64,000 nt of DNA. It comes from a virus. Below, one piece after another: positions 23,611 to 49,747 of the stretch (positions within the stretch are counted from its first letter, which is position 1; every line of letters starts with the position of its first letter). The stretch lies in the IMG/VR virus record IMGVR_UViG_3300027702_000001, one strand, 5' to 3'. The notes under the pieces were generated by a model. The model saw nothing but the letters and a program-made list of their open reading frames with translations. It was not told where the DNA came from and did not search any database. The position numbers were made by a program, and so were the translations under genes.

Positions 23611-23695
23611 CGGAAAAGGTGGGATTCGAACCCACGGATGCCTTCACATCGCTGGTTTTCAAGACCAGTGCCATCAACCACTCGACCACTTTTCC
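23611..23695 (-). tRNA. tRNA-Ser(TGA)
   Basis: GGAAAAG acceptor stem, CTGGT CT-TGA-AA ACCAG anticodon arm, long variable arm, GGTTCGAATCC T-loop; no encoded CCA. Confidence 0.92.
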
Positions 23696-29304: not shown

Positions 29305-29395
29305 ATGAGTGCAGGGAAACACTAATAAGATATTCCTTCGCCACCCTCAGGCGGAGGTATTAGAGACGTAATTTATACTCCCTATAGGTCTCGGT
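29305..29395 (-). ncRNA. Structured psbA leader, probably the PhotoRC-II motif
   Basis: GAGAC...GTCTC stem enclosing TATAAAT, followed by CCTCCGCC/GGTGGCG..GG pairing; family name recalled, not searched. Confidence 0.55.
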
Positions 29396-29451
29396 TGGAG
29401 GGGAGTAGTAGTTGTAGAATTGTTTACATTCCGTAACATTCAACACTATGT

Positions 29452-32096: not shown

Positions 32097-32170
32097 CGGG
32101 TCAGGCAGGATTCGAACCTGCGACCGACTGCTTAGAAGGCAGTTGCACTAATCCACTGTGCTACTGACCC
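32097..32170 (-). tRNA. tRNA-Arg(TCT)
   Basis: GGGTCAG acceptor stem, ACTGC CT-TCT-AA GCAGT anticodon arm, GGTTCGAATCC T-loop. Confidence 0.92.
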
Positions 32171-33935: not shown

Positions 33936-33962
33936 TAAAAAAACACCCTTGAAAAGGGTGTG
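33936..33962 (-). terminator. Terminator of the riboswitch operon
   Basis: CACCCTT TTC AAGGGTG plus 7 T. Confidence 0.75.
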
Positions 33963-33974
33963 CGTTTCACGAAG

Positions 33975-34133
33975 TTATTTGACCGAAGTGTTTTGATTGA
34001 ATGACAAGTTTAACTTTACCCATTTGGCATAGTACACTCCCCGATAGCAAAGAAAGGCGAATACCTTTTCGGGGTTGTGCTTCTCCTCGTCATACTCTGG
34101 CAACCCATAATCTATTGAGATCTTGAGTCGCAC
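33975..34133 (-). CDS. YRG-motif microprotein (DUF4278-like), 52 aa, GTG start
   Basis: Hand translation MRLKISIDYGLPEYDEEKHNPEKVFAFLCYRGVYYAKWVKLNLSFNQNTSVK. Confidence 0.55.
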   Translation of the reverse strand: MRLKISIDYGLPEYDEEKHNPEKVFAFLCYRGVYYAKWVKLNLSFNQNTSVK

Positions 34134-34137
34134 GGTC

Positions 34138-34245
34138 CTAACCCCACTGGTGCAAGAATTTTACTTCTGCATAGATTAAGGTTAGGAACGTGGCAGACCC
34201 CAATGTTATGAGTCCCACCACCATTATCGGCGATGATAGATCCAT
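34138..34245 (-). CDS. 35-aa single-TM microprotein
   Basis: Hand translation MDLSSPIMVVGLITLGSATFLTLIYAEVKFLHQWG. Confidence 0.5.
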   Translation of the reverse strand: MDLSSPIMVVGLITLGSATFLTLIYAEVKFLHQWG

Positions 34246-34246
34246 C

Positions 34247-34390
34247 TTAACTCTTTGATGCGAACTTGCGTTCAACTTTGATGCCTCTGTACATCAACTC
34301 GTAGTTACGGTTTGATGATGCTTCGGCAAGTACCTTTGCTTTGTACTCTTTTGCGTTATACTTAACGCCTCTGTAAGTGATTAGTTCCAT
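34247..34390 (-). CDS. DUF4278-like microprotein (47 aa)
   Basis: MELITYRGVKYNAKEYKAKVLAEASSNRNYELMYRGIKVERKFASKS; two YRG motifs; AGGAG SD. Confidence 0.75.
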   Translation of the reverse strand: MELITYRGVKYNAKEYKAKVLAEASSNRNYELMYRGIKVERKFASKS

Positions 34391-34424
34391 TGAATTACTC
34401 CTAAAGTAGTTGGATTTTTAGGTC

Positions 34425-34671
34425 CGTTCCTTTAGTCGTTTGCGTCCCACGGACATTGAGGAGTTGCCTCCTTAATGGTTTGAACGATCTCAACCTTTAC
34501 CTGTTCAGATAATTGTTCGTGCTTAGCGACTCTACCTAACAGTACAGCAGCATCTACACAATGGAGATCTGAATACGCTAAAAGCATTAGATGCATTAAC
34601 ATAATTTTGGTCCAAACATAGGGATGAACGCTCCGTTCCGCGACTTACTTGCGTCTCTTGCGAGATGAACG
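34425..34671 (-). ncRNA. Tandem glutamine riboswitch-like aptamers (glutamine-II/downstream-peptide type)
   Basis: Aptamer 1 CGTTC-A-TCTC(GCAA)GAGA-CGCA-loop-GAACG; aptamer 2 CGTTC-A-TCCC[insert]GGGA-CGCA-loop-GAACG; directly upstream of the DUF4278-like gene. Confidence 0.75.
34432..34602 (-). CDS. 56-aa ORF nested inside aptamer 2
   Basis: Hand translation MLMHLMLLAYSDLHCVDAAVLLGRVAKHEQLSEQVKVEIVQTIKEATPQCPWDAND. Confidence 0.6.
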   Translation of the reverse strand: MLMHLMLLAYSDLHCVDAAVLLGRVAKHEQLSEQVKVEIVQTIKEATPQCPWDAND

Positions 34672-34697
34672 TATGGATATGATAACATATCCTGTAT

Positions 34698-34704
34698 TAT
34701 TTAG
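34698..34704 (-). promoter_or_regulatory. Late promoter variant (CTAAATA) upstream of the aptamers
   Basis: CTAAATA followed by perfect hairpin GGATATG TTAT CATATCC. Confidence 0.55.
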
Positions 34705-34758
34705 CAATGTTTTTCTTTTTGTAACGTTTCCTTTTGGTACGGTACTGTTGCTGAGTTC

Positions 34759-49528: not shown

Positions 49529-49553
49529 AGACCTGATTATGTGTGGTGTGTGA

Positions 49554-49718
49554 GGGAGGTTGGATTACTGTGTACCAACAAAAGATGGGCATTACTACAG
49601 AGTAAATACATCTTTGCCTAAGACCCGATTGGTAAATCGATTCTACTTTCGTAGCAGCACCACCTGTGTCTTATCACCTTAACCAGCAATATGCCAGTAA
49701 GTTTATTCAGTCACTCCC
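49554..49718 (-). ncRNA. Large structured RNA, probably the manA motif
   Basis: GGGAG/CTCCC closing stem; internal helices TAAGAC/GTCTTA, CTAC-GAAA-GTAG, CGATT/AATCG, AAAGATG/CATCTTT, GTTGG/CCAAC; no ORF; family name recalled, not searched. Confidence 0.65.
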
Positions 49719-49747
49719 AGTAAAAGAAGCGTCCCTCTCTTACAAAT

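Follow-up and report, generated by a model that had tools for sequence, protein, structure and literature searches.

The locus and its features

The window analysed here, a 64,000-nt stretch of viral DNA (IMG/VR record IMGVR_UViG_3300027702_000001), is from a T4-like cyanomyovirus. Its minus strand carries a manA RNA (49549-49742, 179 bits), a PhotoRC-II RNA (29322-29417, 74 bits) and tRNA genes at 32097-32170 and 23611-23695, together with the small cassette described below. Upstream of the cassette on this strand lie a 2OG-Fe(II) oxygenase-like ORF and then an ORF that we take to be nrdB, the counterpart of which is annotated in relatives as the RNR beta subunit, and a talC-like ORF lies downstream. 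A first-pass annotation of the window had placed a complete 56-aa gene inside the P2 stem-loop of the second of two aptamers, and its coordinates and letters for the ORF, the TCCC/GGGA strands and the final codons are all correct on the minus strand. Every element of this leader, checked by coordinate in the window, lies on that strand. In 5' to 3' order, the features are as follows.

34679-34707, minus strand: promoter-like site (TTGCTA, 17 nt, TATCAT, extended TG)
34634-34671, minus strand: sensor unit 1, with CGUUCA at 34671-34666 and the hairpin UCUC-GCAA-GAGA at 34665-34654
34646-34653, minus strand: unit 1 junction, CGCAAGUA
34641-34645, minus strand: AGUCG of unit 1, the 5' strand of a shared P3
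34634-34639, minus strand: GGAACG of unit 1
34631-34634, minus strand: GGAG, made up of the final G of GGAACG and the GAG linker; probable Shine-Dalgarno sequence for the nested gene
34621-34630, minus strand: 5' half of unit 2 (CGUUCA 34630-34625, UCCC 34624-34621), invariant or changed from C to U only in 77 sequences
34596-34619, minus strand: 7-codon upstream ORF (uORF) MFGPKLC, read from the sequence
34432-34602, minus strand: nested gene, phrog_504, of 56 aa (53 aa in most relatives)
34425-34448, minus strand: 3' half of unit 2, within the final codons and stop of the ORF: GGGA 34448-34445, CGCAAA 34444-34439, CGACU 34438-34434 (3' strand of P3), AAAG 34433-34430 and GAACG 34429-34425, with GGAACG at 34430-34425
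34401-34435, minus strand: helix covering the ribosome-binding site (RBS), CUAAAG 34435-34430 with CUUUAG 34406-34401, from covariation and the minimum-energy fold
34247-34390, minus strand: DUF4278/IF17-like 47-aa YRG peptide, the putative regulated gene, from profile searches
33943-33961, minus strand: terminator-like hairpin and U run, the likely end of a small operon

Unit 1 runs from CGUUCA through a 4-bp hairpin and ACGCAAGUAAGUCGC to GGAACG and is followed by the GAG linker. Unit 2 is split: its 5' half (CGUUCA and UCCC) is separated from its 3' half, GGGA-CGCAAACGACUAAAGGAACG (34448-34425), by a gap of 172 nt between UCCC and GGGA that is occupied by the 56-codon ORF. The encoded protein (MLMH...CPWDAND) ends with the codons UGG GAC GCA AAC GAC UAA, followed directly by AGGAACG; beyond unit 2 come CUUUAG-GAG (34406-34398) and the ATG (34390) of the 47-aa YRG peptide. 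On balance we think it probable that the leader of this small cyanophage operon is a two-unit glutamine riboswitch in which the hairpin loop of unit 2 has been replaced by a complete gene, phrog_504; that the leader would bind glutamine we infer from its sequence and conserved fold. As to the placement in P2, a hairpin that bears the ORF does lie directly 3' of CGUUCA, but the number given to that hairpin depends on the nomenclature used.

A conserved protein gene within the leader

By tblastn, about 300 cyanophage records contain the nested ORF (44-60% identity), and all annotate it as a hypothetical protein of about 53 aa; its product belongs to phrog_504 (E 9.8e-19, profile positions 2-53 of 53). 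Among 65 distinct coding sequences, the ORF body has a pS of 0.67, a pN of 0.29 and a median dN/dS of 0.30. Insertions and deletions in the relatives' alignment are multiples of three, synonymous changes occur freely at invariant residues (Cys as TGT 54 and TGC 23 times, Glu as GAA 54 and GAG 23 times), and Arg is written with five codons. AlphaFold2, given 66 sequences, models the protein as a three-helix bundle (pLDDT 84.7). These patterns of substitution mark the nested ORF as a conserved gene on which purifying selection acts, and the claim that a gene lies here, for which a tblastn survey and dN/dS had been suggested as checks, is borne out by both. A Pfam search with the protein found no family, Foldseek against the PDB gave no match below E 5, comparison with a protein atlas returned unnamed viral clusters only, and a search for homologous proteins gave only two near-identical clusters, so that the distribution of phrog_504 is drawn here from tblastn and locus scans.

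The start of the gene lies against the sensor. In 71 of 77 relatives the ATG directly adjoins UCCC and the protein has 53 aa. The window's clade differs by an additional U after UCCC and by about 21 extra nt; in the window, the ancestral ATG (34619-34617) is kept as the start of the uORF MFGPKLC, the stop of which (TAA, 34598-34596) overlaps the ATG at 34596-34594, Met3 of the nested ORF, as UAAUG. The clade has kept a ribosome entry point beside the sensor half despite the changed N-terminus. Relatives at 89% identity (L015-L020) have this 7-codon uORF as well. Together with the preceding G, the GAG linker between the units forms a GGAG that lies 10 nt upstream of the ancestral ATG. All 78 distinct ORF-bearing loci listed have GAG as linker, as against 3 of the 82 hairpin-type loci, most of which have GAU instead (ancestry uncorrected). 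From its position, GGAG is likely the Shine-Dalgarno sequence of the nested gene.

Double coding at the end of the ORF

The final codons are frozen among distinct homologues (GAC 77/77, GCA 77/77, AAC 70/70 and GAC 75/77), with a pS of 0.03 in the last five codons vs 0.67 in the ORF body. Asp is written GAC by 77 to 0 at the ORF's end, whereas elsewhere in the ORF GAT prevails by 68 to 3, and Ala and Asn elsewhere in the nested gene likewise favour codons other than the terminal GCA and AAC. The 3' half of unit 2 within the ORF is identical to the 3' half of units that hold a short hairpin in place of a gene. Because the terminal codons are both frozen and non-preferred, the C-terminal WDAND looks dictated by the sensor core GGGACGCAAACGAC. 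The first-pass annotation had described the last codons as the 3' half of an aptamer, and this frozen, non-preferred usage at synonymous sites agrees with that description.

A bias also marks the Pro that precedes Trp: CCA encodes it in 34 of 39 cases, compared with 24 of 76 for the other conserved Pro (p 1e-8, ancestry uncorrected). With CCA, CAUGGGA is the exact complement of UCCCAUG, so that the start codon itself would be drawn into the stem.

Unsplit relatives and the long-range stem

At least 78 distinct related loci have the same ORF-split unit 2, and in at least 82 others the same cassette has, where the ORF would be, a short hairpin that covaries, giving about 160 distinct loci, a lower bound, among those listed. 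In viral contigs, a pattern scan turned up at least 120 sites at which the 3' half of unit 2 is joined to CGUUCA through a short hairpin. The flanks of the ORF in the window are letter-identical to those of hairpin-type loci, which places the ORF exactly in the loop of the unit 2 hairpin. Unit 1 can also hold a gene, phrog_6471, and all four combinations of gene and hairpin coexist across many lineages with identical cores. Their numbers of distinct loci, among those listed, are:

Hairpin in unit 1, hairpin in unit 2: 64
Gene in unit 1, hairpin in unit 2: 18
Hairpin in unit 1, gene in unit 2 (the window's type): 59
Gene in unit 1, gene in unit 2: 19

The stems of hairpin-type unit 2 covary (UCCC/GGGA, UCUC/GAGA, UCCGUC/GACGGA, UCCAG/CUGGA), and the unit 1 hairpin covaries in relatives as well, its first pair being U-A, A-U, G-C or C-G. 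Where unit 1 holds phrog_6471, the long-range stem covaries over about 200 nt, taking the forms UCC/GGA, UCCAA/UUGGA, UCCUAU/AUAGGA, UCUCAC/GUGAGA and UCUCAUG/CAUGAGA; matched partners give 4.8 bp vs 3.4 bp for mismatched ones, and the observed helix length was reached in 0 of 5000 permutations (ancestry uncorrected).

For the ORF-split unit 2, the closing stem of which is only 4 bp in the window, the five P1 pairs and four UCCC/GGGA pairs are standard pairs in 100% of cells among 77 distinct homologues, well beyond what chance would give. The only changes in UCCC/GGGA are from C to U (7 cells among the 77 sequences), each keeping a G-U pair; there is no compensatory change, and a partner-permutation test is not significant (504/5000, ancestry uncorrected). 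Since the two sides never change together, the case for this pairing is made by conservation, G-U-compatible changes and analogy. The proposal that TCCC and GGGA pair across about 170 nt is thus supported by pairing in 77 of 77 homologues, by the hairpin-type twins and by the unit 1 analogue, but not by compensatory change within the stem itself.

In one relative (L099), both units, at 556-600 and 741-790, carry the same variant junction AAGCCGACU, which suggests sequence exchange between units.

Family assignment and fold

The window's glutamine riboswitch element was missed by Rfam at gathering thresholds. At relaxed thresholds, unit 1 matches Glutamine (RF01739) with 24.9 bits (E 0.005, gathering threshold 35) and Glutamine-II (RF01704) with 24.7 bits (E 0.0007, gathering threshold 33); the ORF-split unit cannot be scored as one piece by these models. 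The element escapes the thresholds because a gene fills the aptamer hairpin and the core is encoded by that gene's last codons. Among six hairpin-type relatives scanned, RF01739 scores 38.6-46.3 bits in three, as one aptamer across both units, and 30.9-34.1 bits in the other three, as single-unit matches; Glutamine-II reaches 26-31 bits against its threshold of 33. The CGUUCA and GGAACG strands occur in both units and are paired in 100% of 77 and 54 sequences, being invariant and so without covariation. The known junction, ACGGAAGUA in type I or CGCAG..CGA in type II, corresponds in the cmscan alignments to ACGCAAGUA in unit 1 and ACGCAAACGA in unit 2.

Two other pairings were considered and set aside. 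A CGUUCA inside the ORF (34486-34481), proposed by cmscan as a 5' half (E 1.7), is restricted to the window's clade and is made up by the codons ATC GTT CAA. A permuted pairing of the 3' strand of hairpin 1 with UCCC is at odds with the internal covariation of hairpin 1 (UCUC/GAGA, UCAGAG/CUCUGA) while UCCC stays fixed.

In the cmscan reading, CGUUCA of unit 1, hairpin 1, ACGCAAGUA, a P3 stem and then (U/G)AAGGAACG of unit 2 make up one Glutamine-I aptamer. P3 in this reading is AGU/ACU; it encloses unit 2 and extends to AGUCG/CGACU (34645-34641 with 34438-34434), which pairs in every sequence and changes only from A-U to G-U. Inside P3 lie GAACG of unit 1, the linker and CGUUC of unit 2, which could form a hairpin and are perfectly complementary over the 3-nt linker in all loci, followed by the ORF-bearing stem. 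We propose that, if the units are so interlocked, the nested arrangement creates a second three-way junction, with P3 common to both. Two units are indeed present, as the first-pass annotation had it, but a simple tandem of aptamers is probably wrong, since the Rfam Glutamine model prefers the outer aptamer with P3 enclosing unit 2; the units are probably interlocked through AGUCG/CGACU. Covariation cannot separate interlocked from tandem because P1, P3 and the inner GAACG/CGUUC are invariant. Either way, the sensor must close across the ORF.

A helix over the stop codon and the downstream operon

CUAAAG (34435-34430), which contains the UAA stop of the nested gene, pairs with CUUUAG (34406-34401), overlapping the Shine-Dalgarno sequence AGGAG (34402-34398). 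In 77 sequences, the middle base of the stop codon pairs as A-U in 34, G-C in 32 and G-U in 10 and is unpaired in 1, where the alignment points to a slip, and hairpin-type loci show the same covariation in the RBS-covering helix. This helix is also within the minimum-energy fold of the window's leader. The stop codon had been placed in a loop that might pair with the first aptamer or with the downstream Shine-Dalgarno region. It is not in a loop, its U being in AGUCG/CGACU and its middle A in the RBS-covering helix; the pairing with the downstream region, just before the Shine-Dalgarno sequence, is there and covaries. Two bases are common to CGACU and CUAAAG, so the RBS-hiding helix competes with the sensor fold.

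Under constrained folding the interlocked fold has -74.3 kcal/mol, the tandem fold -72.8 and the RBS-hiding fold -79.6, so that both sensor-competent folds lie 5-7 kcal/mol above the RBS-hiding one by nearest-neighbour energies. This gap fits a switch but is no proof of one. RNAalifold, which cannot represent pseudoknotted or competing folds, returned unit 1 and the RBS-covering helix.

The 47-aa YRG peptide is phrog_5049 (E 1.2e-20) and matches Pfam DUF4278 with 24.1 bits (E 4.8e-5), just under the cut-off of 25.3. The leader was thus found to lie before an IF17/DUF4278-type gene and to carry an RBS-hiding pairing, as is expected of a glutamine riboswitch. In the window 7 nt separate the end of the promoter-like -10 from CGUUCA of unit 1, which makes it probable that the transcript begins at the sensor. 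Of 163 distinct upstream sequences from relatives, 108 have a TATAAT-like -10 that stops 7-8 nt short of CGTTCA, often with a TTGACT -35. The promoter-like site and the terminator-like hairpin suggest a transcript of about 730 nt that starts from the sensor.

Between the DUF4278-like gene and the terminator, two small ORFs lie on the minus strand at 33975-34133 (52 aa, with YRGVYY) and 34138-34275 (45 aa, TTG start, hydrophobic); a Pfam search with both gave no match. In relatives, the TATAAT -10 sits inside a short palindrome before CGUUCA (e.g. GGTCTATAATAGACC); the window's palindrome (34675-34692) reads GGATATGATAACATATCC on the plus strand, where it was flagged as terminator-like. Many relatives (L007:655-715, L010, L011, L014) have an extra hairpin between GGAACG of unit 2 and the Shine-Dalgarno sequence, of the type CGGAUC-ACCC..GGGU-..AAGG with a covarying stem, which is absent from the window.

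Alternative readings of the split unit

The alternative that survives best, though we regard it as unlikely, is that the two halves of unit 2 do not pair with each other. CGUUCA-UCCC would then function only in translation initiation on the nested gene and as a strand that competes with unit 1 (through a GAACG-GAG-CGUUC hairpin), the 3' half would serve only the outer aptamer or the RBS-hiding helix, and unit 1 alone would sense glutamine and turn the nested gene on, with the DUF4278 gene following by translational coupling. In favour of this reading, UCCC/GGGA lacks compensatory change, and cmscan does join the 3' half of unit 2 to the 5' half of unit 1 as one aptamer; GAACG of unit 1 and CGUUC of unit 2 are perfectly complementary in all loci, and a fold with this inner hairpin and the RBS-covering helix lies only 2 kcal/mol above the minimum. 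However, the same positions form a covarying hairpin in hairpin-type relatives, the equivalent gene stem of unit 1 covaries over about 200 nt, and the CCA bias stretches the complementarity to the start codon. Unpaired halves would also leave no role for GGGACGCAA, upstream of CGACU, which is frozen at synonymous sites.

Still less probable is that insertion of the ORF disabled unit 2, leaving its halves as relics in a cassette that uses unit 1 and ordinary coupling. A translated insert of 172 nt should impede folding, and unit 2 goes undetected by Rfam in the window; relics would nonetheless have decayed, whereas these halves are invariant although the ORF bodies are near synonymous saturation (pS 0.67 vs 0.03), and ORF and hairpin forms coexist in four combinations in many lineages with identical cores. 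That the ORF is untranslated and its conservation reflects the RNA structure of an enlarged hairpin we consider very improbable, for while the annotated ATG of the window's ORF lacks a strong Shine-Dalgarno sequence, the dN/dS of 0.30, the free synonymous change at invariant residues, the indels in threes, the protein HMM family, the confident three-helix model and a GGAG 10 nt before the ancestral ATG that is strictly tied to ORF presence all argue against it.

A possible ribosome-gated sensor

If the leader is a two-unit riboswitch with a gene in the loop of unit 2, as we favour, the glutamine-competent RNA would have to close around the nested gene through UCCC/GGGA and CGUUC/GAACG, and would most likely also need AGUCG/CGACU, which interlocks unit 2 with unit 1. 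Without the sensor fold, CUAAAG would pair with CUUUAG and cover the RBS of the IF17-like DUF4278 gene; folding stabilised by glutamine would free that site, as in ON-type glutamine riboswitches.

Since GGAG and the start lie in the 5' half and the last six codons are the 3' half, a ribosome that initiates on the nested gene or finishes it would exclude the folded sensor. A 30S subunit on GGAG and the AUG would cover CGUUCA-UCCC and much of unit 1, and a ribosome decoding WDAND and the stop would unwind the 3' core, P3 and the RBS-hiding helix. Conversely, the folded sensor would hide the start of the nested gene and free the downstream RBS. A terminating ribosome could also expose the RBS of the next gene, and if terminating ribosomes open it in this way, the downstream gene could be expressed without glutamine. 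From this geometry we infer that the glutamine-bound fold and translation of the nested gene are mutually exclusive, as well as the regulatory role and direction of that exclusion. We tentatively suggest, with somewhat more doubt than confidence, a ribosome-gated sensor, in which the riboswitch folds only while the nested gene is untranslated and its folding hides that gene's start.

Were this so, glutamine and translation would be weighed on one RNA to decide which of two phage proteins is made, and one of the two is likely to inhibit host glutamine synthetase. Genes would be swappable in either hairpin, and the riboswitch loop would be a recurrent landing site for small phage genes.

Relation to known systems and distribution

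Both known types of glutamine riboswitch are ON switches before IF17/DUF4278 genes, and removal of an RBS-blocking pairing upon glutamine binding has been proposed for them (PMC6212724; PMC6698751). The phage element resembles Glutamine-I (RF01739, as in the Synechocystis gifB/IF17 leader; PMC6212724) in its CGUUCA...GGAACG closing helix with a hairpin after CGUUCA, in its junction ACG(G/C)AAGUA with P3 and then (G/U)AAGGAACG, and in the short RBS-hiding pairing and DUF4278/IF17-type gene downstream. It differs in that the P3 loop holds a second, permuted core (GGAACG-linker-CGUUCA-hairpin-ACGCAAA), in that it can carry a protein gene in one or both hairpins, and, in the window, in a junction C where the consensus has G, with a sub-threshold score of 24.9 bits. 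Likenesses to Glutamine-II (the Downstream-peptide motif, RF01704, of marine picocyanobacteria; PMC6698751) include the CGUUCA and GGAACG pseudoknot strands, the CGCA..CGA junction of unit 2, GGAACG inside the helix that adjoins the RBS, the YRG peptide downstream and the ON-type control that we would expect of it. In contrast to that motif, the phage element scores below threshold (24.7 bits in the window), occurs in phages rather than host genomes and has a gene in its P1 loop.

Two other kinds of RNA combine structure and coding in ways that bear comparison. The Mg2+-sensing leader of Salmonella mgtA contains the mgtL ORF, and translation and folding compete there and jointly set downstream expression. 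In mgtL, which codes for a short sensor peptide, the codon content is important and the ORF lies outside any aptamer hairpin loop, whereas the phage ORF encodes a conserved folded protein within such a loop; the RNAs are unrelated. Phage group I introns carry complete genes in peripheral loops, with helices closing around the gene. Those are ribozymes and mobile elements; in the cyanophage leader, by contrast, the end of the ORF encodes the conserved core of a metabolite sensor.

Tandem glnA RNAs and downstream YRG peptides were described by Weinberg (2010), with nested genes absent from that account, and neither Klahn (2018; PMC6212724) nor Huang (2019; PMC6698751) treated phages or nested ORFs. 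We found no description of a gene inside a glutamine aptamer in the full-text literature, the coverage of which excludes Ames and Breaker (2011). The cassette occurs in at least about 160 distinct loci, compared with only two glutamine aptamers in cyanophage genomes in the survey of McCown (2017; PMC5473149). Aptamers are usually treated as compact non-coding units, and covariance-model scans depend on that assumption. The cassette offers a natural system for studying translation and ligand sensing on one RNA, and hints that phages control nitrogen assimilation in the host by way of IF17-like peptides.

A search of the genomes of 185,579 species gave just 5 records with the unit 2 core (L220-L224), in bins assigned to Synechococcus (a 194-kb contig), Nonlabens (188 kb), Verrucomicrobiales, Euryarchaeota and an uncultured bacterium. 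The likeliest origin of these records is cyanophage contigs that were mis-binned or co-assembled in metagenome-assembled genomes.
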